A DNA stretch of 32,000 nt from Nitrososphaerales archaeon. Its GTDB lineage: Archaea; Thermoproteota; Nitrososphaeria; Nitrososphaerales; CADDZS01. Both the position numbers and the translations under genes were made by a program. The stretch is from positions 2,973 to 34,972 of the forward strand of contig JASHOD010000038.1 in assembly GCA_030041295.1 (NCBI GenBank), written 5' to 3'. A model generated the notes under the pieces. That model made no database searches. It was not told the origin of the DNA and worked only from the letters and a program-made list of their open reading frames with translations. Shown piece by piece: positions 3,035 through 30,300 of the stretch (position 1 is the first letter of the stretch; each line of letters starts with the position of its first letter).

Positions 3035-4417
3035 TCAATAATTCACCTCTAACGCGACTGGGGACGGTTTCTTTGCATCAACTTCCTTTATCTCTTCATC
3101 CGGTCTGCTTGAATTGAAAACCCTGATGAAAAAGTAGAATGTCGTGGGAACAATAACAAAATAGAAAACCATGATCAATATTCCGGGAATTATCAAAGAA
3201 GTGCTCTGGTTTGCAGCTTGCGCGACGGTCACAACGCCGTAAACGATCCAGGGTTGGCGTCCCACCTCGTCGGTTATCCATCCGAACTGGTACACGAGAT
3301 AGGAACCGATGGCGGCCGCAATTTGAAGATACAGTAATACCTTGGATTCGAAGGGCCTCTTCTTGATCAGCCACCCGAGAATGTAGAGAAGAAAGTATCC
3401 GCCCGCCAGAAATGCGCCAAGTACCATGAGGTCGAAGGTCGTGTTTACATAGAGAGGCGGCCAAGTTGACGGATTAAATTGGGAAAGGCCCGGCAGCAGC
3501 GATTTTCCAGTCTCCGTCTTTGCAAGGAGAGATTGCAGCCCAGGAATAGTAAGTCCGAAGAAATGTTCCCCGAGATTTGATCCTGGGGTCAGGTTATGAT
3601 CCAAGGCAGCGTACTTCTCCGGTTGATCCAGAAGAAGTGTTGCCATTTCGTTTGTCCCACTTAGCCCTGCTAAAATCAAAGTTACGATGCTCGTTACCCA
3701 TGTTAGACGTAATCCCTTCGTTAGCAGAGTTCGTTCCTCGGGTTTCCTGTTTCGGATCAGTCTATAGGCGAAATACCCACCAATTATCATCGATCCCGTA
3801 AAGACGGTCGTCGAAAGCACGTGAGCTATCTCTGCGAAAGTCGATGGAGTAAAGAACGGGGCCCATGGATTAACTCCAGTGACGACAAGCTGCCCAGTTT
3901 TCAAGCCTTGAGTAAGCGCCGACGCATTAAGGCCGTTTGGTGTATTCATCCACGCATTGACTGCTACAATCAGAACCGCAGAAATCAGAGTACCTGCTGC
4001 GACTATACAGCCTACGACGAAATGGGTCCATTTTCCTCTAAATGCGTTCGCGTAATAGACGTACAACACTAAGAAAATCGTCTCTAAGAAGAAAGCAAAT
4101 ACTTCAAAGTAGAATAACTCGATCACTCCAGTTTGTGCCCCGACTGTAATAAAGGCAGGGAACAGGGTGACGAGCTCGACCGCCATCACAATGCCACTTG
4201 CCGTACCGACTCCAAACGAAATTGTGAATACTTTGGTCAGCCTTTTCCCAAGGTTCGCAAAGTATGGATCATGTCGCCTAATCGATAGAAATTCCGCAAG
4301 AACTATTGTGATGATTAGAGCGATACTCGTAGTAACTAGTGTGATGTGGGATGCGATCGTGAACGCAAACAAGAATCGGTCAAAAGTAGTCATCGTTCCG
4401 AAAAGAAGAATGCTCAA
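3035..4417 (-). CDS. cydA: Cytochrome bd ubiquinol/menaquinol oxidase subunit I
   Basis: 460 aa. TM1 His ('FTIASHITL'), 'FYFEVFAFFLETIF', 'NAWMNTPNG', 'FAEIAHVL', and the hallmark 'GWITDEVGRQPWIVYG'. Confidence 0.9.
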   Translation of the reverse strand: MSILLFGTMTTFDRFLFAFTIASHITLVTTSIALIITIVLAEFLSIRRHDPYFANLGKRLTKVFTISFGVGTASGIVMAVELVTLFPAFITVGAQTGVIELFYFEVFAFFLETIFLVLYVYYANAFRGKWTHFVVGCIVAAGTLISAVLIVAVNAWMNTPNGLNASALTQGLKTGQLVVTGVNPWAPFFTPSTFAEIAHVLSTTVFTGSMIIGGYFAYRLIRNRKPEERTLLTKGLRLTWVTSIVTLILAGLSGTNEMATLLLDQPEKYAALDHNLTPGSNLGEHFFGLTIPGLQSLLAKTETGKSLLPGLSQFNPSTWPPLYVNTTFDLMVLGAFLAGGYFLLYILGWLIKKRPFESKVLLYLQIAAAIGSYLVYQFGWITDEVGRQPWIVYGVVTVAQAANQSTSLIIPGILIMVFYFVIVPTTFYFFIRVFNSSRPDEEIKEVDAKKPSPVALEVNY

Positions 4418-4789: not shown

Positions 4790-6454
4790 TCAGTGAACGC
4801 CGATTACTTGGCCTTCGCGAGTCAAGTAGATGTCTTCAGCAGCTGGGTGAAGCGGCAGCCCGGGCATCGTCATAATGCTCCCCATGTAAACGACATTGAA
4901 TCCCGCGCCGGCTGCGACGCGGATTTCGTCAACTTTCGTTTTGAAACCACGGGGCCTTCCCAACTTTTGCGGATCATCAGAAAGGGAAGATGGTGTCTTC
5001 GCGATGCAGACTGGAAGTTTGTCAAAGCCGTATTTTTCTATACGGGCAACATCCTTCATCGACGAGGGAGAATACTCTTCTCCAACCCCCCCATAAATCT
5101 TCGTGACTACTTTCTCAATCTTTTCGCGAGTCGTATCTTCGAGCGAATAGAGCGCTTTTGATCTGGATCCTTTCTGCGAGGCTTCAATCGCAAGCATTGC
5201 TAATTCAATAGCTCCTGAGGATCCTAGTTCAAATGCCTCCGAAACGGCGCAAGATACGTTCAGGTTTCTACAAGCTTGTTTCACCATGTTTATGTCGTCT
5301 TGGCTGTCGTCCGGGAACTTGTTGACAGCGACAATCGGGGTTATTCCGAGGAGCTCCATATTTTCAATGTGTTTTGCAAGATTCTCAACGCCCCCAATGA
5401 GCTGCCCGTAATTTTGAGAAAGTAACATGGAGGAACCTGACGTGCTAAAGTAAGTAGAACTCAAAGGCTCAGATGTTTTTGAGTGATATTTTAGCGCTCT
5501 AATTGAAGCCACTATTATTGCACAATCGACGTTGAGTTCTCCGATCCTCGAGACGATATCAACGAATTTCTCTCCTCCGAGGTCGCTTCCAAAACCTGCC
5601 TCGATGACACAATAGTCAGCCAGGCTCAACCCAAGATTTATTGAAACGAGGCTGCAAGTTCCGGTCGCCAAATTTCCGAAGGGGCCTCCGTGAATCAAGG
5701 CCGGTGTTCCCTCGCAGGTCTGTGACAGGTTCGGCAGAAAGGCATCTTTCAAAATCGCTGCCATTGCCCCTGATGCTTTGACATCCGAAGCAGTTATGGG
5801 CTCATCGTTTGAATTAGACCCAATTATTATTCTTCCGAGCTTGTCACTAAGATCAGAATAATTCTTTGAAAGACAAAACGTTGCCATGACCTCTGAAGCC
5901 GCTGTAATCATGAATCTATCCTCTCTCGGAGCCATGTGTTTTTCTTCTGAGAGCCCTACTTTGATCCTTCTCAAGGCACGGTCCTCCATGTCGACTGCTC
6001 TCGTCCAGGAAATCGAGTTTGGATCTATGCAGAGAGAATTTCCGTGGAATATTTGATTATCCACCATGGCGGCGAGCAGGTTGTGCGCTGCGCTGATCGC
6101 GTCAATGTCGCCGGTGAATCGCATGTTGATCTCGGTCGAAGGCTCGACTGTACATTTTCCTCCTCCAGTCGCCCCACCCTTCACGCCAAACAAAGGGCCG
6201 AGCGAAGGCTGCCTGATGATCGAAATGGCTCTATGACCTAATTTATTGAGTGCCATTGACAAGCCTATGGCGGTGACCGTCTTTCCCTCACCATGCGGTG
6301 TCGGGGTCATTGCCGTAACCAATACTACCTTCGCGTTTCGTCGGCGATATCGATCGATTACTTCTAAACCAATCTTTGCGGCGTAATTTCCGTAAGGCTT
6401 CACAGCGCCGAGAGGGATGTCAAGGTCTTTTGCTATTTCAAGGATATTCTTCAT
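4790..6454 (-). CDS. fhs: Formate--tetrahydrofolate ligase
   Basis: 554 aa. 'TPTPHGEGKTVTAIGL' nucleotide-binding loop and full-length colinearity with FTHFS. Its start overlaps the ilvE stop (ATGA at 6451-6454). Confidence 0.93.
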   Translation of the reverse strand: MKNILEIAKDLDIPLGAVKPYGNYAAKIGLEVIDRYRRRNAKVVLVTAMTPTPHGEGKTVTAIGLSMALNKLGHRAISIIRQPSLGPLFGVKGGATGGGKCTVEPSTEINMRFTGDIDAISAAHNLLAAMVDNQIFHGNSLCIDPNSISWTRAVDMEDRALRRIKVGLSEEKHMAPREDRFMITAASEVMATFCLSKNYSDLSDKLGRIIIGSNSNDEPITASDVKASGAMAAILKDAFLPNLSQTCEGTPALIHGGPFGNLATGTCSLVSINLGLSLADYCVIEAGFGSDLGGEKFVDIVSRIGELNVDCAIIVASIRALKYHSKTSEPLSSTYFSTSGSSMLLSQNYGQLIGGVENLAKHIENMELLGITPIVAVNKFPDDSQDDINMVKQACRNLNVSCAVSEAFELGSSGAIELAMLAIEASQKGSRSKALYSLEDTTREKIEKVVTKIYGGVGEEYSPSSMKDVARIEKYGFDKLPVCIAKTPSSLSDDPQKLGRPRGFKTKVDEIRVAAGAGFNVVYMGSIMTMPGLPLHPAAEDIYLTREGQVIGVH

Positions 6455-7567: not shown

Positions 7568-7798
7568 TTGTGCATTACTAGAGTTGGAAAGATAGTTTCG
7601 CTTAAAGAATCAAAGAGTGCGACTGTCAGATTACTCGGCGACGGTAAGATTGTTGAAGACGTCGACGTCTCTATGATTAAAGCCAAGTTAAACTCTTTTG
7701 TCGAAGTTTATGCTAACCTTGCTTTGAGGAAGCTCAGCACTGCAGAGGCGGAAGAGCGAAGTCAAGTCTGGGTAGAAATCATGCGGGCGAGGAATTGA
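7568..7798 (+). CDS. hypC: HypC/HupF-family hydrogenase maturation chaperone-like protein
   Basis: 76 aa with a TTG start, preceded by a GGGGGA ribosome-binding site 8 nt upstream. The N-terminus 'MCITRVGKIV' matches the HypC 'MC(L/I)xxPG' pattern with the essential Cys2. The C-terminus 'FVEVYANLALRKLSTAEAEE' parallels E. coli HypC 'WVLVHVGFAMSVINEAEARD'. Confidence 0.75.
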   Translation: MCITRVGKIVSLKESKSATVRLLGDGKIVEDVDVSMIKAKLNSFVEVYANLALRKLSTAEAEERSQVWVEIMRARN

Positions 7799-7802
7799 TC
7801 TC

Positions 7803-8576
7803 ATGCCATTGGTAGACGCTTCGGGGGCGCTTTTTCACGCAAAACATGCGTTCATGCCTAACAAGCTAGGTTACTGCGGTCCCGACGATAGAGGGATGAT
7901 CCTAGACCGCCTCAGAGAGTCGACGGTCGATGATAGACTTGTCGCAACGCTAAAAAATTTCGAAGCTGCGTACCCCTTCATTCGGCTAATCGGGAAATCC
8001 AATCAAAGAGACCCCTTTGATCTAAAAGTGGCAGATGCCTACTGGATCGGGAACAAACTACTAAGCAACGTATCACCGAAAGCATTTTACAATTTTGCAC
8101 TCGAAGACCTTCGAAAGAAAAACGGAGAAGAGATCCGTTCTTTGTTTCTTGCCTTGCGAGACAAGGCAATCCCTCACCACACTTTCTATGTGATAAGCAC
8201 GACCATGAGTATAATCTCGGATTTTCACCATACGAGCGGAGCCAATCCGAACAAACTCTCTGAAACAATGGATAATTGCAGAATTTCTTGGGGAGAGGCG
8301 ACCAAAATCGAACGTGATCAACTCAAGATTCGCTATCGACCACTTCGCTTCGAAGATGGATGGCTATCTCTGGGCCCAATGAAGACAAAGACTATTGAAT
8401 ACGACAGATCCGTCTCTCCGTTCGATAAGATTGCGGTAGGAGATTACGTCAGCATTCATTGGAATTTTGCATGCGAGATTCTCTCGGAAACACAGCTCAG
8501 AAATATACAAAATTACACAAAGAAGGATATCCAAGCGGTGAACGTCTTCCTGGAAGCAACAAAGCGATCCAAGTAA
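7803..8576 (+). CDS. Unknown His/Cys-rich N-terminal domain fused to a C-terminal HypC-like OB domain
   Basis: 257 aa, starting 4 nt after the hypC-like stop, with a GAGGAA ribosome-binding site. Residues ~157-240 ('DNCRISWGEATKIERDQLKIRY...VGDYVSIHWNFACEILSETQLRN') align by eye with full-length HypC ('MCIGVPGQIRTIDGNQAKVDV...VGQWVLVHVGFAMSVINEAEARD'). The N-terminal domain carries 'HAKHAFMPNKLGYCGPDD', 'IPHHTF' and 'DFHHTSG'. Confidence 0.7.
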   Translation: MPLVDASGALFHAKHAFMPNKLGYCGPDDRGMILDRLRESTVDDRLVATLKNFEAAYPFIRLIGKSNQRDPFDLKVADAYWIGNKLLSNVSPKAFYNFALEDLRKKNGEEIRSLFLALRDKAIPHHTFYVISTTMSIISDFHHTSGANPNKLSETMDNCRISWGEATKIERDQLKIRYRPLRFEDGWLSLGPMKTKTIEYDRSVSPFDKIAVGDYVSIHWNFACEILSETQLRNIQNYTKKDIQAVNVFLEATKRSK

Positions 8577-8625: not shown

Positions 8626-9891
8626 GTGTCCGAAACTAAAGCTATTCAGATTCGTGGCAAGTTAGGAGCATCGTCATTTTTCCTCTTCGTAATGACGCTG
8701 GGCTACGCAGTTTTCGCTGTAGATCGAAGCGTACTCTCCGCTGTCCTAGTCCCTATGGCACACAGTTTTGGGGCATCAACATCGCAAACACTCTTTCTCC
8801 AGGCGGCGCAGTTTATCGGAGTATTTTGCTTCGTATTCATTGCAGGACACCTTTCAGATAAATTTGGGAAATGGTCAGTTCTGACCGCTGGAGTAATCAT
8901 ATTCACCGTTTTTACCTGGATGATCGGATTTGCAACAAGTTATGCAGAGGCGTTCGTATTCAGGTTGGTCAGTGGTTTCGGAGAAGGTATATTCTGGCCC
9001 GTCGCGATGGCGTGGGTCGCATCGTACTTCGGTTTTCGAAAGGGCCTCGCGCTAGGAATTTTCTATGTGGGTTTTGATATCGGAAGTATAGGAGGACTTT
9101 TCATAGGAGGAGCTTCCTTTGCATTATACAATACATGGCAACCCGCCTTTTTCATTGCTCCGTCGATTGGATTGATTGTACTTGCTGGCGCTCCGTTCCT
9201 AAGACAGAGACTCGGCTCCTCAAATAATGATGACCCTGTCGGAGGAGAGTTTCAGCCTTTTAAGCTCGGGAGAGAAGCAGTTCCTCTGCTAAAGAACAGA
9301 AATGTCGTACTGCTCATGTGTTTTGCTTTCTTCGCAACGTGGGCCTCCCTTTGGCAGAGCGCCTTCCTTCCTCTTTACTTCAATAAGGTCGCACATTTCT
9401 CGATTCCATATGCCGCATTCATGACAATCCCCGTGCTTGCTGCAGGAGCAGTTGGTAAAGTCACGCTCGGGGGGATCTCAGATCGCTCGAGGAGAAATTT
9501 GATGTTGTTTTCAATTTCAATAATTGTTCTCTTTTGTTATGCGATTTTCTTTTTCGTGGACAATTTTGTACTAGATATTGTCGCTGCTCTGGGTATGGGT
9601 TTCTTCAGCGCGGCTTCGTTCCCAATACTTCAAGCACTCGTCGTTGACAGCTGTCGGATAGCGAGGGCGGGTACGGGCTTAGGGCTGACAACATCGGCGC
9701 AGTCACTGGGAGCTATTTTCTCTGTTTCCTTTACGGCGTGGCTATCTTCCTTTGGAGTTAGCAGAACGCTAGCTTTGAACGCAATGGTACCGACCGCGAT
9801 GATAGCGGTCATCGCTATCTTTCTAGTAGAGCCTAGGATGGCAAAGCACAAACAAAGTCAGAATTCAATTGCTCGAGGACGCACGAGATAG
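8626..9891 (+). CDS. MFS transporter (12-TM type)
   Basis: 421 aa with a GTG start. Polytopic, with the MFS motif-A-like 'GHLSDKFGKW'. Confidence 0.8.
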   Translation: MSETKAIQIRGKLGASSFFLFVMTLGYAVFAVDRSVLSAVLVPMAHSFGASTSQTLFLQAAQFIGVFCFVFIAGHLSDKFGKWSVLTAGVIIFTVFTWMIGFATSYAEAFVFRLVSGFGEGIFWPVAMAWVASYFGFRKGLALGIFYVGFDIGSIGGLFIGGASFALYNTWQPAFFIAPSIGLIVLAGAPFLRQRLGSSNNDDPVGGEFQPFKLGREAVPLLKNRNVVLLMCFAFFATWASLWQSAFLPLYFNKVAHFSIPYAAFMTIPVLAAGAVGKVTLGGISDRSRRNLMLFSISIIVLFCYAIFFFVDNFVLDIVAALGMGFFSAASFPILQALVVDSCRIARAGTGLGLTTSAQSLGAIFSVSFTAWLSSFGVSRTLALNAMVPTAMIAVIAIFLVEPRMAKHKQSQNSIARGRTR

Positions 9892-9897
9892 AAGGTA

Positions 9898-10230
9898 TCA
9901 GCCATCAAAGTTCTCGACTCGTTTCTCTCTCTTCAACCTAGCCTCTCTCAATTCTTCTACATTTTTTAGCATAGTGTGAAGAATATTTTCGGTTCCTCTT
10001 GATTCCTGTTCGAGTTCGCCAAGAGCCTTTTTCAATTCCAAATTATCTGATTCGCTGGCAATTTTGCGATAGCTATTTGCGAGGTCCTCTTCCACCGCTA
10101 TCCATTGGAGTACGTTCTCTGCTATTGGATCACAGTAACCCGTTCGTATGGTCTGCTCGACCTTGAGAGCCTGCCCAAGATTTTCGATCTCAACAATTAC
10201 TCTTTCACGAATCAATGAAAAATGTAGCAC
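9898..10230 (-). CDS. Hypothetical all-helical acidic protein
   Basis: 110 aa with a GTG start and a GGAGGT ribosome-binding site 9 nt upstream. Coiled-coil-like C-terminus. No family recognised. Confidence 0.5.
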   Translation of the reverse strand: MLHFSLIRERVIVEIENLGQALKVEQTIRTGYCDPIAENVLQWIAVEEDLANSYRKIASESDNLELKKALGELEQESRGTENILHTMLKNVEELREARLKREKRVENFDG

Positions 10231-10747: not shown

Positions 10748-11302
10748 ATGCCGACTGACCTTACACATTATGTTTGCAGGGTTTCGCTGAAAGGTGGAAT
10801 CAGTGTTGAACTACGACCGATACGTCCAGTCGACGAAGTGATGGAAAAGGACTTTATCCAGAGGCTAGGGCCCGACAGCGAATACAATAGATTCTTCGGC
10901 TACTTCAGGGACCCCTCTCCTGAAAAGTTAAGATCTCTATGCAACGTTGATTATGAAACAGAAATGGCAATCGTAGCTCTACTCTCCCCGCGCTCGGGTT
11001 CCGAAATGATAATCGGAGTCGGAAGAATGATCGAGTCAACTCAGAACAGGGCTGAACTTGCTGTAGTGGTAGCAGACGAATTTCAGCACTTGGGCTTAGG
11101 GACGAAACTGGTAGAAATGCTCTTAGATTTTGCCAAGGTTAGGAAATTCTCAAGCGTCTACGCCGCAGTACTTCCTGACAATGGAATCATGCTAAGGATG
11201 CTGAAGGATAAGTTCAATTTCAAGATTAAGCATACCGGAGAAGGGCTTGTAATAGCAGAACTCCCCATTGAATTAGCCAGTCCGAAACTAATGTCGCCCT
11301 AA
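10748..11302 (+). CDS. GNAT family acetyltransferase (stand-alone Pat-type C-terminal domain)
   Basis: 184 aa. 'LRPIRPVDE', 'YNRFFGYF', and the acetyl-CoA loop 'VADEFQHLGLGTKLVEML'. It resembles the GNAT domain of Pat-type protein lysine acetyltransferases. Confidence 0.8.
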   Translation: MPTDLTHYVCRVSLKGGISVELRPIRPVDEVMEKDFIQRLGPDSEYNRFFGYFRDPSPEKLRSLCNVDYETEMAIVALLSPRSGSEMIIGVGRMIESTQNRAELAVVVADEFQHLGLGTKLVEMLLDFAKVRKFSSVYAAVLPDNGIMLRMLKDKFNFKIKHTGEGLVIAELPIELASPKLMSP

Positions 11303-12786
11303 CTTATAATCCCAAGAAAAATCGCAGGAACGACCCCCGTCAAGACACTTAGAGCCAATAAGAAGACGGGTACTGCAATTGATTTGGGATATCCATTTGT
11401 CGATGTCGGGGTAGGAGAAGCCGTTGATGCGGTCTCATTACTTGGGCTCAGTACGACGTTGTTGATTATCCTAAAGTAGTATGCGATCGAGAGGAAAATA
11501 TTCAAAACAATTATGATTGCAACAAAGAAGAACAATCCACGAAGGACGGACCCGACTGCAAGCAGTGACTCGACGATCAGAAGCTCCCCCCAAAACATTC
11601 CAAAGGGAGGAGACCCGACCATAGCTAAAGAGGAAGCAGTGTAAAGAACTCCCAGAAACTTGTTCTTTCGCCCGATTCCTTTCATTTTATCGAGATCGGT
11701 CTCCTCGTACCTGTCTCGGCCGATGCCACTGAGCATGAAGAAATTTGATTTAACTAACCCGTGGTTCCAGATTTGGAATGCCGCTGCGATGAATCCGAGC
11801 GGAGTCAGAGTCGCTATTGCAGCAAGAATGTAGCCAATCTGGGCTATCGAGCTGAAGGCGAGCATCCTCCGAAGATTGTTTTGTCCCATCGCCCCGAAAT
11901 TTCCTACAAACATCGTACCAACTGCAAACCCGATTAATGCAAGCTGAATCCCATGCACGACAGAAGAAGGTACCGTGCTCGGCACGAGCGGCTGGACGAT
12001 CTTGAGCATCGCGAAAACGAGTGTCTCGTTCACTACCCGACCGTGAAGCGCCCCCGTCAAGGCGGGAGCTGAACCATAAGCATCCGGTAACCACGTGTGG
12101 AATGGGAAGATAGCCACTTCGGTGCCTAGGCCGGCGAGTACCATTACCAGCGCGAAAAGGCCAGTGCTGCTGTTTTGTTGCATTAACGAGGAAAGCGAGG
12201 AGAACTGAATTCCGCCTTGGACGGAATACAAGAGCGCTACCCCGTAGAGATACACCAGACTTCCCGCTCCAGCGAGAAAGAAGTATTTTAGAGCAGCTTC
12301 GAGCGAAACGTTTCTACGCTCGAAAGAAACGAGCCCAAAAGCTGCCACACTAATTCCGGTCCAGAAGAGAAAGAGAGTAAGAAAATCCCCTGAGGAAATC
12401 ACACCAATGGAAGATGTTACAAGTAACATCAGTAATGCGAAGAATGGTCCTGAATTTATTTTCGGGGAGAAACTTAGCATGCAATATACATCAACGGCGA
12501 TTCCCACTACAAGAATTGTGAGAATTACGAGCAAGCCTAGCCGATCAAGGGAATAAAGACTGGAGAGAACTGAAGTGATAGGCTGGAGGAGTAGCGGGGC
12601 AGAAAAGACTCCTGACCAATTCGAAAGGAAAATTAGAAGAGTAACCAAAAGCGCCACGAGCGCGACACTTCCTACAAAGTACGCCCTGTATTTTCCGTAG
12701 TATTTCTTTCCGAGATCAGTGCCAAGCGCCGCCATTGCTCCGATGAATTGTATTTCGAGCATAGTTATGAGAAAGTTCGTGGGCAT
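11299..12786 (-). CDS. nuoN: NuoN-like antiporter-type membrane subunit of a complex-I-like hydrogenase
   Basis: 495 aa and polytopic. 'SLEAALKYFFLAGAGSLVYLYGVALLYS' matches the NuoN 'EAxxKYfxLG' signature. Last gene of the operon. Confidence 0.8.
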   Translation of the reverse strand: MPTNFLITMLEIQFIGAMAALGTDLGKKYYGKYRAYFVGSVALVALLVTLLIFLSNWSGVFSAPLLLQPITSVLSSLYSLDRLGLLVILTILVVGIAVDVYCMLSFSPKINSGPFFALLMLLVTSSIGVISSGDFLTLFLFWTGISVAAFGLVSFERRNVSLEAALKYFFLAGAGSLVYLYGVALLYSVQGGIQFSSLSSLMQQNSSTGLFALVMVLAGLGTEVAIFPFHTWLPDAYGSAPALTGALHGRVVNETLVFAMLKIVQPLVPSTVPSSVVHGIQLALIGFAVGTMFVGNFGAMGQNNLRRMLAFSSIAQIGYILAAIATLTPLGFIAAAFQIWNHGLVKSNFFMLSGIGRDRYEETDLDKMKGIGRKNKFLGVLYTASSLAMVGSPPFGMFWGELLIVESLLAVGSVLRGLFFFVAIIIVLNIFLSIAYYFRIINNVVLSPSNETASTASPTPTSTNGYPKSIAVPVFLLALSVLTGVVPAIFLGIIS

Positions 12787-12789
12787 CGA

Positions 12790-14529
12790 TTAGATTACTC
12801 CTATCACTATCAAAACCGCCGTGATGATTAGTGCCGCGAAAAGTATCGCAATGTTATTCTCCAAAACGCCCGTCTGAAGCCCTTTTGCCCCCCGAACAAG
12901 GGGGCCGGTAATCCATTTTTCAAGAGAAAGATATGCCTTGTCAAATTCAAAATCTTCGACAAGCACGGTTATCACGCCATGCAGAAACGGGCTTGTCTCT
13001 ATCAGAGAATTCTTCGAAGCGACCTTCTTGACGAAAGCATAGTAGGAAATTCCAAGACCTACAAATAGAACTGCTACGGCTGTTGAAGCGGATTCTAGGT
13101 TCAAAGACATATTCAGGGAAGGAATGAAAATCTTCTGAACGCTAAGGACTAGCCAGCCGACTACGACACAGATTACAAGCGTAATCATCGGAGCGACCAT
13201 AAGGAGTTCAGATTCCTTTGCATCGCCCTTTCGTTCACCGTGAAACACCCGAAATAGCGCCCTAAAGCCGTAGAGAGAAGTTAATACGGAAGCAAGGGCT
13301 ATTACTAGGAAAGCGTAGTCATTTGTGGCAAGAGCTCCCGAAAGAATTGCGTCTTTGGTCCAAAATCCCAGAAGGGGCGGAAGGCCTACCATCGAGAGCA
13401 TTGAAAACAGGAAAGCGAGGTACGTATATTTCATCACTTGACGCAGTCCTCCCATGCTCGCTATGTTTCTCGTACCAATTGCTTCGATCACGGATCCCGC
13501 GGCCATGAAAGCTAAAGCCTTGAAGACTCCCTGTCCAATCAGCTGATAAATAGCTCCGGATGTATTCTGTAAACCTACAGCGGCGAACATCAATCCCAAC
13601 TGACTGATTGTGGAATAGGCAAGGATTCTCTTGAGGTCCTGTTCTGCGCAGGCGCAAGATGCCCCAACGACCATACTCAGGAGACCAATGACAATCAGTG
13701 CAGTCGAAAGAGACTGATACGCGGAATAGATTGGAGACAATCTAATAATGAGATACACACCTGCGTTGACCATCGTAGCGGCGTGAATTAGGGCGCTGAC
13801 CGGTGTTGGACCTTCCATTGCATCGGGAAGCCAGACATGTAGCGGAACTTGGGCTGATTTACCCATTGCTCCTACTATAGTTAGTGCGCCGATGAGAAAC
13901 CAAGTAGAGTTGAGGGTATGAGTTTGAACATAAGTAGAAATCGACGCGAGATTTGTTGTTCCTAAAGTGGTAAGGACAAGAATCACAGCAATAAAGAGAG
14001 CAATGTCGCCAAACCTTGTTACTACGAATGCTTTGAGACCTGCTTTTCTTGCGGCTTCCCTATCGGACCAAAAGGCGATCAGGAGTGCAGAGCATATTCC
14101 GACAATTTCCCAGAAGAAATAAAGTTGGATTAGATTTCCAGCCATAACGAGACCGAGCATTGCTCCGATGAAAATAAGAACAAGAGAATAGAATCTAGCC
14201 TGCCCCTGCTCGAGTTTCATGTTCTCTACGGCATAGAAGACTATAACGAAGGAAAGGAACGAGACGAATGCTGCAAGAAGTACGGATAGTCCGTCTACTT
14301 GAACTTGCAAGGATACCGAAGTGTTAGAGACTATAATCCAGTTTCCGACACTTTCGGTAAAGGAGCTTATAAAACTAAAGGACTGATAGATTCCGACGCC
14401 TGCTGTGATCGCGCTTACGACAACTGCGAACCATTTACACGCCTTGTCGTTTACGAAGGATACCAGAATAACGAATGGAGAAGCTACAAACGGAAACAAC
14501 CAAATTATCCAGGGAAGTAAATAGTTCAC
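12790..14529 (-). CDS. nuoL: NuoL-like antiporter-type membrane subunit
   Basis: 579 aa. 'FFWEIVGICSALLIAFW' (NuoL 'WExvGlxSylLIgfW'). The C-terminal segment 'FLHGVITVLVEDFEFDKAYLSLEKWI' followed by a final TM resembles the NuoL lateral-helix region. Confidence 0.85.
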   Translation of the reverse strand: MNYLLPWIIWLFPFVASPFVILVSFVNDKACKWFAVVVSAITAGVGIYQSFSFISSFTESVGNWIIVSNTSVSLQVQVDGLSVLLAAFVSFLSFVIVFYAVENMKLEQGQARFYSLVLIFIGAMLGLVMAGNLIQLYFFWEIVGICSALLIAFWSDREAARKAGLKAFVVTRFGDIALFIAVILVLTTLGTTNLASISTYVQTHTLNSTWFLIGALTIVGAMGKSAQVPLHVWLPDAMEGPTPVSALIHAATMVNAGVYLIIRLSPIYSAYQSLSTALIVIGLLSMVVGASCACAEQDLKRILAYSTISQLGLMFAAVGLQNTSGAIYQLIGQGVFKALAFMAAGSVIEAIGTRNIASMGGLRQVMKYTYLAFLFSMLSMVGLPPLLGFWTKDAILSGALATNDYAFLVIALASVLTSLYGFRALFRVFHGERKGDAKESELLMVAPMITLVICVVVGWLVLSVQKIFIPSLNMSLNLESASTAVAVLFVGLGISYYAFVKKVASKNSLIETSPFLHGVITVLVEDFEFDKAYLSLEKWITGPLVRGAKGLQTGVLENNIAILFAALIITAVLIVIGVI

Positions 14530-14846
14530 CCGCGCAACCTCCTAATCTCTGATGGGTTGAGAGTACCGTACTTTCGATAGACGCCTACGATGATCGCTAT
14601 TCCCACAGCTTCGACACTAGCGCTTGCGAGTATCGAGAAGAGCAGGAGTGAATCCGAGACGACGGGAAACTCGGATCCTAGGCTCGAAGAAAATAGTGCG
14701 AGATTTGCGCCAATTACTACGACTTGGAAAGACATAATCGTCTTGATCAGATGTTTTGACAAACTCATTGAACCGATGCCAAGGAAGATCAGTATAGTCG
14801 CCGTTGTTAGAAAGACAATCTGGTTCGTTAGAACTAAAGCCGTCAA
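14526..14846 (-). CDS. nuoK: NuoK-like membrane subunit
   Basis: 106 aa with 3 TM. 'ASASVEAVGIAIIVGVYRKYG' matches the NuoK C-terminal motif. Overlaps nuoL and nuoJ by 4 nt each. Confidence 0.75.
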   Translation of the reverse strand: MTALVLTNQIVFLTTATILIFLGIGSMSLSKHLIKTIMSFQVVVIGANLALFSSSLGSEFPVVSDSLLLFSILASASVEAVGIAIIVGVYRKYGTLNPSEIRRLRG

Positions 14847-15343
14847 GATTGGGAGTCCTCCTTAGAAAACAAATTAGTGACAACAACCATCGCTGAAGCG
14901 AATATTACGAGAAGAATCAACAAATCCCACGGTCTGTATTCCCAGACAAATTGAAGGAGATTGGAAGGCGAGAATGCTCCTGCGCTGCTGCTTGCAGCTG
15001 AACTTGAATTAGGAAGCCCTACAAAGAAAGGCGACGCGCCGACGACAAAAACCCCAATAGCTGTCGCAAGTAGAATGATCTTTAGATTATGGGCACCTAT
15101 GTCGAGTTTTGACTCCCCCGTCATGAGAATAGCCGTGAGCATTAACACGGACACGGCCCCGGCGAAGGTAATGATTTCTAACAAGCCCACTATGATGCTG
15201 CCGTATATCGTGAAGATTATCCCGAGGGCGATGCTTGCATAAAAGAGTCCAATTAACGAAACAGAAACAGATTTGGAAAATAGTGCAACAACGACGGCGG
15301 CGATCAACACTACTGAAAGAATGAGCGCAACCTCAGCTGACAT
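14843..15343 (-). CDS. nuoJ: NuoJ-like membrane subunit
   Basis: 166 aa. 'GLLEIITFAGAVSVLMLTAILM' closely parallels E. coli NuoJ 'GALEIIVYAGAIMVLFVFVVMM'. Confidence 0.75.
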   Translation of the reverse strand: MSAEVALILSVVLIAAVVVALFSKSVSVSLIGLFYASIALGIIFTIYGSIIVGLLEIITFAGAVSVLMLTAILMTGESKLDIGAHNLKIILLATAIGVFVVGASPFFVGLPNSSSAASSSAGAFSPSNLLQFVWEYRPWDLLILLVIFASAMVVVTNLFSKEDSQS

Positions 15344-15770
15344 TTTTGAGTGCCTTGTCCATAACGAGAGAATCTTTGTTTACAGTCGCAAGCTCAAATT
15401 CGTGGGTGAGTACTAGTGCTCCGAACCTGCAATCGTCGACGCATTGGCCACATGAAATGCAACTGTATAGGTCAAACGTAGGCCTCTTGGTCTCGATTTC
15501 TCTTGATCCAATTTTTCGCGTTCCTGTGTGAACCATCTGGATAACCGCGGCAGGACAAACGGCCTCGCATACGCCGCAGCCGGTGCATTTGACTGGATCG
15601 ATGTCAAGCTTGCCGCGGAATCTCTCGGCCACCTGAGGAGCTCCGAATGGATACTCCTTAGTTATGGGTCGTTGGAATGCAGTTCGGAACATTTCACCGA
15701 GAGCGCTTCCTACCTTTCTTCGACTTGCCCTTCCCTTTTCTCCTTTCGATCCATTTTCATTGGCTTTCAA
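15333..15770 (-). CDS. nuoI: NuoI-like 2x[4Fe-4S] ferredoxin subunit
   Basis: 145 aa. Two cluster motifs, 'CTGCGVCEAVCP' and 'CISCGQCVDDCR'. Confidence 0.85.
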   Translation of the reverse strand: MKANENGSKGEKGRASRRKVGSALGEMFRTAFQRPITKEYPFGAPQVAERFRGKLDIDPVKCTGCGVCEAVCPAAVIQMVHTGTRKIGSREIETKRPTFDLYSCISCGQCVDDCRFGALVLTHEFELATVNKDSLVMDKALKNVS

Positions 15771-15777
15771 TTTCTGC

Positions 15778-16749
15778 TCACCTCAGTACTAGAACAAGTC
15801 CTAGCTGCAAAAGACTCAATGGTGTTAGGACAGTCCAGAAAAGATTTGCGGCTTGGGAGATCCGGACTCTGGCAAGAGCTGTTTTGATTGAAAAAATGGC
15901 AAACCCTATCGCGAAAACCTTGAGCAAGAAATAGCCTAGGTATACTATGCTCTGGAGTAGAGGAATCTGAGTAACTACCGGACCCGAGGTTCCGCCTAAA
16001 AACAAACTTGCAGCAAGAGCCGAAAGGAAAACGTAGCTCAAGCTCTCTGTTAGCTTCACATAAGCCAGAGGTCGTCCAGAAAGCTCCGTCATCCATCCCG
16101 CAGCAATCTCTGTTTTTGCGTCCGGAATATCAAACGGTGGTTTTTCGAGCTCGGCCAAAGACGCCACAATGAACACACTGAAACTTATTGGAGCGAACGC
16201 AATATACCAATGAAAGTCAGCTTGAGATTGTACTATGCCACTTATTGAAAGAGATCCGGCTATCACGGCGGGTGTAATTATCGAAATTAAAAGTGGGATC
16301 TCGAAACTTGCGTACTGCATTATCAATCTTCCAGTAGCCACTGTCGAAAACCTTCCAGCGGAAGCGTATCCGAGCATGCTAGCCATAAGCGTAGAAAAGG
16401 CGAGAATGAAGAGAATAAACAACAAATCAAAAGGGCTCGACACGATGGCGCTCAATCCGATTACTGGAATGAAAATTGTCCCGATTGCTGGGGCTGCAAA
16501 GAATAGTGGCGGCCCCCACTCGAATACGAATTTATCGGAAAACTCTGGAATAATTTCTTCCTTCGTCGTGAGTTTGAAGAAATCTGCTACCGGTTGTAGG
16601 ACGCCTCTTGGGCCCGCAAGAATTGGACCCAATCTTCCTTGCATTCTAGCTGTGGTTTTCCTATCCAGCCATTCGAATACAAAGGATAGCCAGACGAAGA
16701 AGGTGAGCCCTGGGAACAGAAGTATTTCTATGACCTGAAGGGTGTCCAA
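15778..16749 (-). CDS. nuoH: NuoH-like membrane subunit
   Basis: 323 aa. 'RKTTARMQGRLGPILAGPRGVLQPVADFFKLTTKEEIIP' is the canonical NuoH/HycD/MbhM N-terminal motif. Confidence 0.85.
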   Translation of the reverse strand: MDTLQVIEILLFPGLTFFVWLSFVFEWLDRKTTARMQGRLGPILAGPRGVLQPVADFFKLTTKEEIIPEFSDKFVFEWGPPLFFAAPAIGTIFIPVIGLSAIVSSPFDLLFILFILAFSTLMASMLGYASAGRFSTVATGRLIMQYASFEIPLLISIITPAVIAGSLSISGIVQSQADFHWYIAFAPISFSVFIVASLAELEKPPFDIPDAKTEIAAGWMTELSGRPLAYVKLTESLSYVFLSALAASLFLGGTSGPVVTQIPLLQSIVYLGYFLLKVFAIGFAIFSIKTALARVRISQAANLFWTVLTPLSLLQLGLVLVLR

Positions 16750-16752
16750 TGC

Positions 16753-18036
16753 TCAGCTTGTCCTACCTCTTGTCTGCATTCCGTTGTAGTATCTGATTCC
16801 AAAATCGCGAAGTTCCCTCCCGCGGATAGACCACTCCTTTTGCTTGTCGACTTGCAGAACGGCGATTCTATCCATGCAGCCAAAACAGGGGTCCATTCCT
16901 GTGAGAACTATCGGAACATCGGCGAGAGTGTATCCCTTTAGCATTGAGATTACTGTAAGGACGTTTGCCATGGTTGGTGTCCTAATTTTCACGCGTTCTG
17001 GGATGGTACCTCCTGGTGAGCGTACATAGTAGAATAATTCACCTCGCGGAGCTTCGACATGGAACGCATTTTCTCCCTTCGGAACAGATCTAGGAGCCGT
17101 CAACTTCACCGGGCCACTGGGGATCTTTTCCAATGCCTCTAGTACTAATCTGCATGATTCAAGAGCTTCTTCTGCCCTAATAACTAGGAGCGAAGCAATA
17201 TCTCCATCGGTGCTCGACTTTACTTCAGGTATTATCTCGTCGTAGGCCGCATAAGGATCTTCGACCCTTACATCCCTTGCAATCCCTGTGCTCCGTAATA
17301 GTGGGCCCACCGGGGAGAATTTTCTCGCAATATCTGAATCGATCTTTCCGACTCCCTTCGTTCTAGATACGAGGGTTTCTTCGCTTGTGACCAGTTCTTT
17401 GTAGTATTTGATTCTCCTTTGGAGATAGTCCATTTCTTTCTTAATGCGGGGCTCTATGTTGTCAGGTAGATCTTTTCTTACACCAGTTAATGTACTGTAT
17501 GATTTGTGTACCCTGTTTCCTGTGATAGCTTCTACAAGATCGAGGACGTGCTCGCGATCTTTCCAGATCCACATGAAGAGCGTATCAAAACCAGTCCAAT
17601 ATCCGACCAGCCCGAGCCAGAGCATGTGTGAGTGGATACGCTCGAGTTCGGCCACGATTACCCTGATGTAGCGAGCTCGCCTCGGAACTTCGAACTGCAA
17701 AATGCCCTCGACAGCCTGCACGTATGATAAGCTGTGCGCAAAACTGCATATCCCGCAGATTCGCTCGAATAGGTAGATGTTCTTGACCCATGTCCTATCC
17801 TGAGCGGCCCGCTCTATTCCTCTGTGTACAAAACCGATTCTCGGTATGGCATCGACAATTTTTTCCCCCTCCAGTATGAGTTTGAAATACTCGGGTTCAT
17901 GAAGCGCGGGATGAACCGGTCCAAAGGGCATAAGATTCTCGGGCGAATACTCCATCAAGCCCGCCGAGACTTCTTTTCTCGGAACCTGACCTTCCTCGCC
18001 GGGAATTGGCTGGTAGTCTTTGTTCTCTTCACTCAA
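16753..18036 (-). CDS. nuoD: NuoD-family subunit that retains both [NiFe] Cys pairs, i.e. a group 4 [NiFe]-hydrogenase large subunit with a 37-aa C-terminal extension
   Basis: 427 aa. N-terminal 'RICGICSFAH' (nt 17734-17763) and C-terminal 'DPCFGCMDR' (nt 16867-16893), followed by 'IAVLQVDKQKEWSIRG...RGRTS'. Bona fide NuoD has lost these cysteines. Confidence 0.9.
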   Translation of the reverse strand: MSEENKDYQPIPGEEGQVPRKEVSAGLMEYSPENLMPFGPVHPALHEPEYFKLILEGEKIVDAIPRIGFVHRGIERAAQDRTWVKNIYLFERICGICSFAHSLSYVQAVEGILQFEVPRRARYIRVIVAELERIHSHMLWLGLVGYWTGFDTLFMWIWKDREHVLDLVEAITGNRVHKSYSTLTGVRKDLPDNIEPRIKKEMDYLQRRIKYYKELVTSEETLVSRTKGVGKIDSDIARKFSPVGPLLRSTGIARDVRVEDPYAAYDEIIPEVKSSTDGDIASLLVIRAEEALESCRLVLEALEKIPSGPVKLTAPRSVPKGENAFHVEAPRGELFYYVRSPGGTIPERVKIRTPTMANVLTVISMLKGYTLADVPIVLTGMDPCFGCMDRIAVLQVDKQKEWSIRGRELRDFGIRYYNGMQTRGRTS

Positions 18037-18490
18037 GTCCCATCATCTTTCTAATTTTTGCAGGATCTGCTTCCTTTCTCAGTGGAGGGGGCGCTTCAGC
18101 TGGATAAGAATCTGGCAGGATCAGTTTTTGTCGGCAGACAGGATTTCCTTCGAACTTTACTCCCAGTAGATCTTTTACTTCTGCCTCATAGAGTAGTGCG
18201 GCCGGAACTATGTCGGAGATTGAATCTATGGTGGAGTCTTGTTTTGGCACGCTGGTCTTAATGGAAAGAAATTCCTTTCCTTTCCAGAAATGGTAAATGA
18301 CGGTAATCATTGCTCCATCATCATATCCTGAAATCGTGGATAGATGGTAATAGTCCGGCATTTCTTGCTTGAAAATTCTGAAGGCATCCCGGATCCTATC
18401 AGGGCATACGGTCAGGATAGTCGACTTACGATCCCTTGTGATTTGGGCTTCGGATCTTACGGCTATTTCCTCGAGCTTTGCATCACTCAC
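18029..18490 (-). CDS. nuoC: NuoC-like subunit
   Basis: 153 aa. 'YHLSTISGYDDG...VIYHFW' and 'ALLYEAEVKDLLGVKFEGNP' match the NuoC/HycE-N/MbhK family. Confidence 0.8.
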   Translation of the reverse strand: MSDAKLEEIAVRSEAQITRDRKSTILTVCPDRIRDAFRIFKQEMPDYYHLSTISGYDDGAMITVIYHFWKGKEFLSIKTSVPKQDSTIDSISDIVPAALLYEAEVKDLLGVKFEGNPVCRQKLILPDSYPAEAPPPLRKEADPAKIRKMMGLE

Positions 18491-18492
18491 GA

Positions 18493-19005
18493 CTATTGTG
18501 ACACCTTACCTTGTCCCAACTGAATGTCCGTGCCCTCTATCTCATCCTTCTCATCTTCTTTCGGCTCCTCTGCGACCACTTCTCGTCTCGGATGCTCACC
18601 AACTAGCGTCAAAATTCCATATAGGATCGCTTCAGGTCGTGGAGGGCATCCGGGAATGAAGAGGTTGACGGGTATGACCTTGTCCACCCCATGGCCAACG
18701 TTGTAGCATCCTTTCATCACGCCTCCGCCTAGCGCACATGCCCCAACTGCCACGACGAGCCGAGGATCAGGCATCTGTTCATAGATTCTCTTCAAGATGT
18801 CTCGCGTCATCGAGTTTGCAGTCCCTGTCACCAGGAGGACGTCCGCGTGGCGAGGGCTCGCGACTAACTCGACTCCTAGTCTTTCAGCATCATAGCGCGG
18901 AATGAGCGAAGCAAGAATTTCAATATCGCATCCGTTGCAAGACGCAGCATTGACGACGAAAACCCAGATTGACCTCTTCCTAGCCCACTTTGTTATGGCA
19001 CTCAA
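18493..19005 (-). CDS. nuoB: NuoB-family [4Fe-4S] subunit of the hydrogenase small-subunit type
   Basis: 170 aa. 'SCNGCDIE' has the C-x-x-C form found in group 4 hydrogenases, not the tandem CC of NuoB. Also 'VGACALGGG' and 'IPGCPPRPE'. Confidence 0.9.
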   Translation of the reverse strand: MSAITKWARKRSIWVFVVNAASCNGCDIEILASLIPRYDAERLGVELVASPRHADVLLVTGTANSMTRDILKRIYEQMPDPRLVVAVGACALGGGVMKGCYNVGHGVDKVIPVNLFIPGCPPRPEAILYGILTLVGEHPRREVVAEEPKEDEKDEIEGTDIQLGQGKVSQ

Positions 19006-19346
19006 ATCTTACCCCCTCCCACGATTAAGAACCACCAGACACTGATCATTATGACCGCGCTGCCCCCTAGGAGAAAGAGCAAGGGGTAGAAATTGCTCGC
19101 CGCTGCGTATGATCCAGCGAGTAAAAGTGCGAAAGCTTCTACGATTAAAAAGAGCATACCGAACACGAAAAGCTCTGATCTGTACACTCCTCTCTTCGGG
19201 ACATCGAGCTCTCCTCCCGTGAAGGGTTCATACTTTACTCCCTTTCCAGACGATCTCTTACCGAGCTTCCCTGCTATAAGATAAATTATGATATCGACAA
19301 CAACAATGAGGACAGGAGCTACTACGACGTCAAGGGTTGATGTCAA
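19002..19346 (-). CDS. nuoA: NuoA-like small membrane subunit
   Basis: 114 aa with 3 TM. 'KYEPFTGGEL...RGVYRSELFVFGMLFLIVEAFALLL' resembles NuoA 'YE(C/S)G...fy...lFiiFDvE'. Its position before nuoB fits. Confidence 0.6.
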   Translation of the reverse strand: MTSTLDVVVAPVLIVVVDIIIYLIAGKLGKRSSGKGVKYEPFTGGELDVPKRGVYRSELFVFGMLFLIVEAFALLLAGSYAAASNFYPLLFLLGGSAVIMISVWWFLIVGGGKI

Positions 19347-19876
19347 TTTTTGTCTATCTCCATTCCAACTATGTAATCGCTCACTCTTTCGACGATTCGA
19401 TCTGCGGAAGAACGCACCGTGTTCGAAAGACCCTCTCCTATCTCCAGGTTCTCTGGCTGAATTCCTACTACGAAAATGCCCGCGAGGCTTGGCCGGAGAT
19501 CAGAAAAAAGTTTCAGCGGAATATTGTGGGTTCCGAAGAACCCGTATTTAGTGTCTGCTAAACTAGCAAAAACAATTGACCCGGGATCTAGGTTTGCCTC
19601 TACTGAATCAATGATTAGAAAAGTTTCGTTAAGCCTCTTCGTTCTCGCGAAATTTGAAAAAACTCTCTCCGGCGTTAACTCCTTGGTAATGCGAACATAT
19701 TTGTTGGGATTGGCTCCGTACCTACGTCTCAGTTTTGAAGCAACATAAAGGCCCGCAAAATCATCACCCTTTATCGGATTGCCAACACCTACAAGTGTCA
19801 CATGCTTTGGCCTATCGACGGAGTCCAAGAAGGCTAGCAACTCATTGGCCCACTTTTCGTCCATAACTTTGCTCAC
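19343..19876 (-). CDS. hycI: HycI-type [NiFe]-hydrogenase maturation endopeptidase
   Basis: 177 aa with a GTG start and a G-rich ribosome-binding site. 'LVGVGNPIKGDDFAG', 'FLIIDSVEANLDPGSI', 'GTHNIPL' and 'VVGIQPENL' parallel E. coli HycI 'LLCVGNSMMGDDGAG', 'LLIVDATDMGLNPGEI', 'TTHNMPL' and 'FLGIQPDIV'. Its stop overlaps the nuoA-like start by 4 nt. Confidence 0.85.
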   Translation of the reverse strand: MSKVMDEKWANELLAFLDSVDRPKHVTLVGVGNPIKGDDFAGLYVASKLRRRYGANPNKYVRITKELTPERVFSNFARTKRLNETFLIIDSVEANLDPGSIVFASLADTKYGFFGTHNIPLKLFSDLRPSLAGIFVVGIQPENLEIGEGLSNTVRSSADRIVERVSDYIVGMEIDKN

Positions 19877-30294: not shown

Positions 30295-30300
30295 AGGACG

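Follow-up and report, generated by a model that had tools for sequence, protein, structure and literature searches.

DUF6390, a protein family with an internal HypC-like domain, as a probable accessory to [NiFe]-hydrogenase maturation

What might a HypC-type chaperone be doing when the very next gene encodes a larger protein with a second, internal HypC-like domain? The maturation of [NiFe]-hydrogenases is usually told as the work of six Hyp proteins and a few extras in Proteobacteria. The question is raised by contig JASHOD010000038.1 of a Nitrososphaerales archaeon, of which a stretch of 32,000 nucleotides (nt), referred to throughout as the window, was analyzed in its whole length. Here, a protein of 76 amino acids (aa) from the HypC family is followed by a 257-aa protein of the family DUF6390. 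We consider it highly probable that DUF6390 is a [NiFe]-hydrogenase-associated accessory protein working with a HypC paralogue; our answer as to which step of maturation it serves is a good deal more tentative and points to the iron branch. Coordinates are positions in the window unless another locus is named, and residue numbers are those of the 257-aa protein unless stated otherwise. The features needed at this point are the following:

7568..7798, forward strand: HypC-family chaperone paralogue of 76 aa, with a TTG start and a Met-Cys N-terminus, beginning MCITRVG(K).
7803..8576, forward strand: the 257-aa protein (DUF6390), with an ATG start.
7803..8270, forward strand: all-helical N-terminal domain of DUF6390, residues 1-156, defined by PF19927, conservation, and AlphaFold models.
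8271..8576, forward strand: C-terminal HypC-like OB domain and helix of DUF6390, residues 157-257, as indicated by hhalign, a sub-threshold Pfam match, Foldseek, and profile matches in the PDB.

The two open reading frames (ORFs) lie on the same strand, 4 nt apart, and both this spacing and the TTG start are as a first, sequence-only reading of the window had described them. The TTG-TGC at 7568-7573 places a Cys straight after the initiator Met, and the choice of start codon is supported by the orthologues in loci L001, L002, L003, and L043, which have ATG-TGC at the matching aligned position. The 76-aa protein passes the Pfam threshold for HupF_HypC (PF01455; 30.3 bits against a cut-off of 28.5, E 4.8e-7), with residues 1-68 covering profile positions 1-65, that is, the full length. 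It falls below the cut-off of NCBIfam TIGR00074 (20.2 versus 48 bits). By its Pfam score, its Met-Cys start, and its OB-plus-helix length, it is a member of the HypC/HybG/HupF family (structures 2z1c and 3vys), which agrees with the sequence-only reading. It differs from canonical HypC in lacking the usual Pro6 and in having Tyr48 (in FVEVYANLAL) at the position of His51. In an alignment of 20 HypCs adjoining DUF6390 (L001-L038), Met1-Cys2 is invariant, and only 5 carry His at the position of His51, the others having Gln, Tyr, Phe, Asn, or Glu. Unlike these linked paralogues, DUF6390 itself is invariant for the corresponding His.

The 257-aa protein matches Pfam DUF6390 (PF19927) at 179.9 bits (cut-off 25), residues 6-250 aligning with positions 3-241 of the 244 in the profile. 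It is an ordinary full-length member with all family-invariant residues present. Because the whole protein matches PF19927, the N-terminal domain belongs to a catalogued family, so its earlier description as unassignable needs revision; what stands of that description is that the family has no assigned function and that Foldseek finds no fold neighbor of the domain in the PDB, with either the full-length model or the domain alone (for the latter, best E 2.4 and TM score at most 0.23). Some sources label DUF6390 members "hydrogenase maturation factor." The family has thousands of members: a profile of diverse members retrieves 1,414 clusters at 90% identity, a mycobacterial member used as query retrieves 4,615 clusters at 90% identity (E at most 1e-20), and a search with the N-terminal domain only retrieves 650 clusters at 50% identity.

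Residues ~157-240 appear, from profile comparison and modeling, to be a real, albeit remote, relative of HypC, as the sequence-only reading had also proposed. The stretch 207-235 matches HupF_HypC at 18.2 bits (E 0.0028), below the cut-off of 28.5, and 10 of 103 DUF6390 members match the same profile at E of at most 0.01; no other family recurs among them. Aligned by hhalign with the 20 neighboring HypCs, residues 159-239 give a probability of 82% (E 1e-5) and Cys159 falls on Cys2 of HypC. When the DUF6390 family profile is compared with the PDB, only HypC chains are matched, at E~0.09. The AlphaFold model of the full protein (103-sequence alignment; mean predicted local distance difference test, pLDDT, 90; predicted template modeling score, pTM, 0.90) has helices up to residue 159, strands forming a beta barrel (162-226), and a long helix (229-256), the part after the helices having the architecture of HypC. 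Foldseek against the PDB returns OB folds only, including HypC chains 2z1c_B (TM score 0.69) and 3vys_A (0.82; both normalized by target length) at E of ~0.04-0.06. Since these E values are weak and the OB folds of ribosomal protein S17 and single-stranded DNA-binding proteins score about as well, the fold indicates an OB domain compatible with HypC, and the specificity for HypC comes from the sequence profile.

Cys159 and His219 occupy the positions of HypC Cys2 and His51 in the alignment and are invariant in all 103 sequences. HypC C2, possibly H51, and HypD C41 have been described as iron ligands (PMC12134894). The C-terminal 100 residues of the 257-aa protein thus share with HypC the OB-barrel-plus-helix architecture and both residue positions; what they lack is the free N-terminal Cys that defines HypC function, Cys159 being internal, behind a helical region of 158 residues. 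The 150 best representatives from the N-domain search include no standalone form beginning with MCRISWG. Self-cleavage by Asn cyclization at Asn158|Cys159, which would expose the Cys, was considered and has been weakened: residue 158 is mostly Asn, but Gly, Arg, Gln, Ser, or Glu stands there in other members.

Conservation was judged over the same 103 diverse members. Invariant or nearly so in the N-terminal domain are Asn20; Cys25-Gly26 (Cys25 codon 7875-7877), on a loop modeled with low confidence; Phe53; Pro58; the EAYWxGN helix, (Glu78)-Ala-Tyr-Trp-x-Gly-Asn84; and Pro124-His125-His126-x-Phe-x-Val, in which His126 (codon 8178-8180) is invariant and His125 is kept in ~90%. The C-terminal domain carries Met156-Asp-Asn-Cys159-Arg-Ile-Ser-Trp-Gly164 (MDNCRISWG; Cys159 codon 8277-8279), followed by Gly213, His219-Trp220 (8457-8462), Cys224 (8472-8474), Gln231, Thr239, and Asn247. 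Four motifs had been singled out from the sequence as potential metal ligands. Two of them, GYCGPDD with Cys25 and IPHHTF with His126, are conserved, but the other two are not: HAKHAF gives way to a family consensus of FARYAF, and DFHHTSG is a variable, gap-rich loop of low model confidence.

The two domains look like one integrated unit, judging from the models and from coevolution. The pTM of the full-length model is high, and modeled alone the N-terminal domain falls to a pLDDT of 78. Mean-field direct-coupling analysis of 488 family sequences, of modest depth (effective number of sequences, Meff, 251), places several inter-domain pairs high in the ranking: H15-S217 (rank 2), L46-R160 (16), D78-Q231 (21), D78-I161 (22), F59-I235 (27), and F11-E225 (40). 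In agreement with the high pTM, these couplings indicate that conserved helices of the N-terminal domain pack on the CRISWG strand, the HW...C hairpin, and the C-terminal helix.

Is the family really tied to hydrogenases? Gene neighborhoods were counted over 39 confirmed loci from a scan of one genome per species, in which ORFs were clustered and representatives checked by Pfam and NCBIfam. The loci come from Nitrososphaerota, several classes of Chloroflexota, Dormibacterota, Patescibacteria (candidate phyla radiation, CPR), Woese- and Nanoarchaeota, and a few otherwise-labelled bins. Of the 39, 28 have a [NiFe] large-subunit gene within 10 kb, as do 15 of the 16 loci with full flanks, and precomputed Pfam annotation confirms the linkage in L043, L045, L048, L049, L051, and L052. 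DUF6390 is found with [NiFe]-hydrogenases across Thaumarchaeota, Chloroflexota, Actinobacteria, Sulfobacillus, CPR, and DPANN. This is what one would expect of the hydrogenase accessory factor that the sequence-only reading had envisaged, and a wide spread of the gene pair apart from any hydrogenase, which would have spoken against it, did not emerge. A HypC-family gene is present in 31 of the 39 loci, often in an overlapping or nearly abutting frame, and 33 have a transporter gene no farther than 500 nt away. It is EamA/DMT directly upstream in 26 loci and a member of the MFS in 5, with an Opp/Nik-type ABC system in others. The usual order is hypC-EamA-DUF6390, in overlapping frames within the structural operon. 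The recurring module is therefore a HypC paralogue, a transporter (EamA, MFS, or ABC), and DUF6390, with the transporter as the most conserved partner after HypC.

The sequence-only reading of the window overlooked the transporter, which is co-encoded here as well. The module and the hydrogenase genes farther along comprise these features:

8626..9891, forward strand: MFS transporter of 421 aa (Pfam MFS_1, 188.6 bits), 49 nt downstream of DUF6390.
11299..19876, reverse strand: group-4 [NiFe]-hydrogenase operon with nuo-like subunits, from Pfam matches.
16753-18036, reverse strand: hydrogenase large subunit (NuoD-like), with the motifs RICGICSFAH and DPCFGCMDR.
19343-19876, reverse strand: HycI-type protease heading the hydrogenase operon (TIGR00072, 71.5 bits).

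The operon encodes the HycI-type protease, subunits like NuoA, B, C, D (the large subunit), H, I, J, and K, and two antiporter-like subunits. Because both motifs are present in the NuoD-like subunit, this is a genuine group-4-type [NiFe]-hydrogenase, and it is the probable client of the HypC-DUF6390-MFS module. The arrangement is repeated beside the same group-4 operon in the thaumarchaeal loci L001-L003 and L043, including a 1.96-Mb contig, and an orthologue of the MFS gene adjoins HypC-DUF6390 in L001-L003, L005, L018, L043, and L048. We regard the window MFS protein as the thaumarchaeal counterpart of the EamA and ABC transporters found beside DUF6390 elsewhere. It matched no specific subfamily in NCBIfam, and the EamA proteins gave a weak generic match.

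The family serves more than this one enzyme class. The linked hydrogenases span at least four classes: group-1-like enzymes with cytochrome b (L015, L017, L022, L038, L045), mycobacterial- or Thermomicrobiales-type enzymes with Rieske/NifU proteins, sulfhydrogenase-like group 3b in CPR and DPANN, and nuo-like group 4 in Thaumarchaeota. Specificity for the group-4 nuo-type hydrogenase, to which the sequence-only reading had tied the protein, is therefore rejected.

Two observations on the window enzyme may be recorded here. Both CxxC nickel-iron motifs and a C-terminal extension are present in its NuoD-like subunit, whose top NCBIfam match is still NuoD (335.9 bits, slightly below the cut-off of 360). 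The same type of operon recurs in related Nitrososphaerales contigs that also encode pyruvate:ferredoxin oxidoreductase (L043).

Where, then, would DUF6390 enter the Hyp pathway? As had been noted from the sequence, none of hypA, B, D, E, or F was found in the 32 kb of the window, by Pfam and NCBIfam scans or by tblastn with genuine Hyp proteins. Across 49 metagenomic and genomic DUF6390 loci, hypD and hypF were found in none and hypE in one. The records with clustered hyp genes show the reverse. The plasmid of Sulfobacillus acidophilus reads hypF-hypC-hypC'-hypD-hypE-tatA-DUF6390, followed by the structural genes and then by hypA-hypB. In Mycobacterium intracellulare (plasmid) and Mycolicibacterium (genome), the order is hypF-hypC-(HypC fusion)-SIS-hypE-hypC-hypD-DUF6390-hypothetical, with hypA/hypB elsewhere; in the mycobacteria, the start of DUF6390 overlaps the stop of hypD. 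For Mycolicibacterium smegmatis, published gene order gives hypC as MSMEG_2703 and hypD as MSMEG_2702, which would probably make MSMEG_2701 the DUF6390 gene. Where hyp genes are clustered, DUF6390 belongs with the hypCDE(F) unit and not with the hypAB unit. Because a full hypABCDEF set stands alongside DUF6390 in the Sulfobacillus and Mycobacterium records, the protein is an add-on, and a general replacement of HypD, HypE, and HypF by it is rejected.

HypD invites a particular comparison. DUF6390 would likewise contribute a Cys and a His complementing the Cys/His pair of a HypC-type domain, and its gene overlaps the end of hypD in mycobacteria. It has neither GPGCPVC nor GFETT nor the Fe-S cysteine cluster of HypD, and it matches HypD neither by PF01924 nor by sequence; tblastn with two genuine HypDs found no HypD in the window. 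Since the two proteins coexist in the clustered records, DUF6390 is not a HypD substitute.

Three further proteins of the mycobacterial clusters deserve mention. A second, unrelated HypC fusion of ~236-241 aa (L042 16070-17433, forward strand; L052 6024-7426, forward strand) carries its HypC domain at the C-terminus, after a CxxC-containing region, and is followed by a SIS-domain protein. Kinship of this 236-aa protein to DUF6390 was considered and rejected: only the HypC part aligns, and the N-terminal part is dissimilar. A soluble protein of ~280 aa without a Pfam match overlaps and follows DUF6390 (L042 20723-21565, forward strand; L052 10753-11592, forward strand) and is an uncharacterized candidate member of the mycobacterial hyp operon.

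From these observations, we propose that DUF6390 is a cytoplasmic maturation factor on the HypC/HypD branch, that of the iron unit Fe(CN)2CO, and that it would act with the HypC paralogue encoded just upstream. The helical domain would pack on the HypC-type OB domain, which keeps Cys159 (equivalent to Cys2) and His219 (equivalent to His51). To these, the helical domain would add Cys25 on its flexible loop, Glu/Asp78, and His126, and the OB domain Arg160, Ser162, and Cys224. Together they may make up a single, composite Cys/His pocket where the two domains meet, holding a metal species that would most likely be iron or an intermediate containing iron. The species would be exchanged with the partner HypC, whose N-terminal Cys is present and whose His is often missing, and HypC would next act with HypD, HypE, HypF, and the large subunit. 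The species that is handled would, in most lineages, be supplied or removed by a membrane transporter translated together with DUF6390 (MFS here, EamA or ABC elsewhere).

The account we lean toward, with a confidence somewhat short of even, is that the composite site takes up iron, or an intermediate containing it, that this is exchanged with the partner HypC, and that the protein acts at the stage of HypC and HypD. We place it on the iron branch because the HypC ligand positions are kept, the partner HypCs are often without the His, the gene is linked to hypD/hypE, and separate nickel transporters coexist with it. The last of these can be seen in L048 (NicO), in the M. intracellulare plasmid (HoxN), and in L009 and L021, where a Nik-like ABC system stands with EamA.

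The transporters also bring in the main rival, in which DUF6390 would be a cytoplasmic acceptor of nickel or a nickel chelate, passing it from the adjoining importer to HypA or to the HypC-bound large subunit. In the Chloroflexota operons L010 (gap of 9 nt), L022, L045, and L051, the genes straight after DUF6390 encode Opp/Nik-type ABC systems, and the top NCBIfam match of the ABC binding protein is NikA. HypA adjoins HypC and DUF6390 in group-1-like and DPANN clusters, HypB is usually missing from DUF6390 operons, one member is fused to a helix-turn-helix (HTH) domain of the ArsR type, a metal-sensor family, and the conserved residue set is rich in Cys and His. However, the gene travels with hypD/hypE rather than with hypA/hypB where hyp genes are clustered, NicO, HoxN, or Nik-like ABC systems coexist in the same cluster with DUF6390-linked MFS or EamA proteins, the NikA match is far under its curated cut-off, and the HypC residues that are kept are iron ligands in HypC (PMC12134894). 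We consider a role in the nickel branch unlikely, and nickel delivery, which the sequence-only reading had suggested as one function, is not favored.

The researcher who looks for precedents will find them among the extra maturation proteins of Proteobacteria. Like HoxV/HupK with HoxL/HupF, DUF6390 is an accessory protein beyond HypA-F that has a dedicated HypC paralogue and is encoded in hydrogenase clusters (PMC12134894). The differences are that HoxV and HupK share homology with the large subunit, whereas DUF6390 has no match to NiFeSe_Hases or another Pfam family of that kind and no structural match to large subunits; furthermore, transporters and HTH domains are linked, and in some cases fused, to DUF6390, and nothing of the kind is known for HupK.

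The parallel suggests a further alternative, namely that DUF6390 is an analogue of HoxV/HupK that, with its own HypC paralogue, holds and transfers Fe(CN)2CO, parking or protecting the finished iron-ligand unit before insertion. In large subunits, Arg and Ser donate hydrogen bonds to the cyanide ligands. Cys159-Arg160-x-Ser162 could offer a thiolate and such hydrogen-bond donors, and DUF6390 is present in many aerobic hydrogen oxidizers without HupK in the cluster. The association of DUF6390 with a HypC paralogue of its own resembles those of HoxV with HoxL and of HupK with HupF (PMC12134894). Nevertheless, by Pfam and by Foldseek against the PDB, DUF6390 resembles large subunits or HupK neither in sequence nor in fold, a scaffold leaves the transporter linkage and fusion and the HTH fusions unexplained, and the family is also present in the anaerobic CPR and DPANN lineages. 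Such a scaffold seems to us decidedly unlikely.

For gene fusions, the 150 best representatives of the N-domain search (the 650 clusters at 50% identity mentioned above) were surveyed by Pfam scans and inspection of their sequences. Most are 230-270 aa long. In a CPR bacterium, EamA (10 transmembrane segments) is fused in frame to DUF6390 in a protein of 563 aa (P0288; L049 6001-7692, forward strand), seen in two independent assemblies; its neighbors encode a protease and the hydrogenase large and small subunits, with an Nramp gene upstream. This fusion argues for a physical coupling of DUF6390 to the transporter on the cytoplasmic side.

HTH domains of three classes are fused to DUF6390 in 4 of the 150 representatives. 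The GntR-type fusion (P0296; L046 1468-2499, forward strand) was found on 9 contigs, its gene running into the start of an ABC importer operon, with a hydrogenase small subunit 8 kb off; the ABC system of that operon is weakly PhnS2/Fbp-like. The ArsR-type fusion (P0241; L048 7918-8972, forward strand), 56% identical to the window protein in the N-terminal domain, lies between HypC and MFS genes in a cluster that also holds NicO, the hydrogenase, HycI, HypA, and an Mrp-like ATPase. With the start as called, the ArsR domain is cut short; taking the ATG farther upstream, at 7918, makes it complete. Of the two XRE-type fusions (P0291 and P0246), P0291 stands between hypC and an ABC system with SBP_bac_5 (L051 4413-5516, forward strand). 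The conserved Cys and His residues are all kept in the EamA, GntR, ArsR, and XRE fusions. The HTH fusions argue that the DUF6390 module binds a ligand worth sensing, and these proteins are probably one-component regulators that use DUF6390 as their sensor.

One might go further and regard the whole family as sensors or regulators: a one-component transcription factor when fused to an HTH domain and, when alone, a modulator of a transporter or regulator that adjusts expression or uptake and has no chemical part in maturation. Four independent HTH fusions in three classes speak for this, as do the spread of the GntR fusion over its 9 contigs at the start of an importer operon and a fragment (P0364) in which the N-terminal domain is fused to HEAT and cyclic nucleotide (cNMP)-binding domains, itself a possible frameshift artifact. 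On the other hand, HTH fusions are rare among the representatives, the standalone form is translationally coupled to hypD/hypC as befits a stoichiometric assembly partner, and a HypC-type OB domain with kept iron-ligand positions is not expected in a pure sensor. We hold this explanation to be improbable. In support of the iron-branch proposal we used neither P0364 nor P0299, an apparent HypC-DUF6390 fusion that looks like a frameshift artifact.

The conserved positions have also to be weighed for an enzyme. In this explanation, the helical domain would make or deliver a ligand precursor (e.g., anaerobic CO) from a small organic substrate that is transported, onto the iron of the HypC-like domain. 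At least 12 invariant polar residues exceed the needs of a simple metal site (Asn20, Cys25, Glu78, Asn84, His125/126, Asp157, Cys159, Arg160, Ser162, His219, Gln231, Thr239, Asn247), the transporters resemble carriers of organic anions and metabolites more than ion channels, and the anoxic source of CO is listed as an open question (PMC12134894). Yet Pfam, NCBIfam, and Foldseek against the PDB reveal no similarity to any enzyme family or fold, no nucleotide- or cofactor-binding motif is conserved, and E. coli and Thermococcus build the cofactor anaerobically without DUF6390 (PMC12134894). A ligand-supply enzyme is accordingly the least probable of the alternatives, and very improbable in itself.

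A broader version of the iron-side proposal, to which we give a low probability, is that DUF6390, the transporter, and the HypC paralogue form an unrecognized supply line for the iron half of the cofactor, providing the iron atom or a precursor of the diatomic ligands where the E. coli route is absent. In the small genomes of CPR and DPANN, neither hypD nor hypF came to light within 10 kb of a locus, so DUF6390 could there replace part of the HypD/E/F pathway. In a variant of the same idea, cleavage before Cys159 would free a HypC-like chaperone with an N-terminal Cys.

Several points weigh against the proposal of an iron-handling factor at the HypC/HypD stage and should be kept in mind. Canonical HypC needs a free N-terminal Cys and that of DUF6390 is internal, so its chemistry cannot be identical to that of HypC. 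The clustering of Cys25, His126, Cys159, His219, and Cys224 is predicted from conservation and from coevolution of modest depth, and the role of these residues as ligands is likewise a prediction. We know of no iron importer among the associated transporter families, and the ABC systems nearest to DUF6390 best resemble NikA (139 bits, cut-off 393), which favors nickel. The actinobacterial and Sulfobacillus loci have no adjoining transporter, so a transporter is not essential to the function. Finally, in well-studied systems the hydrogenase is matured by the six Hyp proteins with HypX, HoxV/HupK, and HoxL/HupF, and without DUF6390 (PMC12134894), so its role would be auxiliary or lineage-specific.

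The literature offers little on the family. We found no paper that names DUF6390, pairs HypC with EamA, or deals with MSMEG_2700, 2701, or 2704, and searches on Gagatemarchaeaceae and on hydrogenase maturation in CPR returned nothing relevant. A 2025 review on how the [NiFe] cofactor is made names HypA-F, HypX, HoxL/HupF, and HoxV/HupK and no DUF6390-like protein; among its open questions are the CO ligand's source under anaerobic conditions and the electron donor to HypD (PMC12134894). What was already known is a sequence family catalogued as a domain of unknown function; what is new is its functional context as a HypC-derived accessory with a new partner domain and a transporter link. The family sits in operons of hydrogenase or hyp genes from mycobacteria to Thaumarchaeota, CPR, and DPANN, and with orthologues in cultivable Mycolicibacterium species it is a candidate that can be tested genetically. 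If the proposal holds, DUF6390 would be a missing step of cofactor assembly in the organisms behind atmospheric hydrogen oxidation, and the link to transporters hints that something which the cofactor requires specifically crosses the membrane.

Two minor observations concern the surroundings of the module. Between the HypC/DUF6390/MFS module and the hydrogenase operon stands an ORF of ~105-110 aa that matches no family; it is present in the window (9898-10230, reverse strand) as well as in L043 (10780-11097, reverse strand) and may be a conserved small partner. Elsewhere the window encodes the following:

4790-6454, reverse strand: formate-tetrahydrofolate ligase, which is not kept beside DUF6390 in related loci.
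3035-4417, reverse strand: cytochrome bd oxidase subunit I.
28897-31047, forward strand: ADP-forming acyl-CoA synthetase pair.

Taken together, these three suggest a facultatively anaerobic, heterotrophic thaumarchaeon that does not oxidize ammonia.

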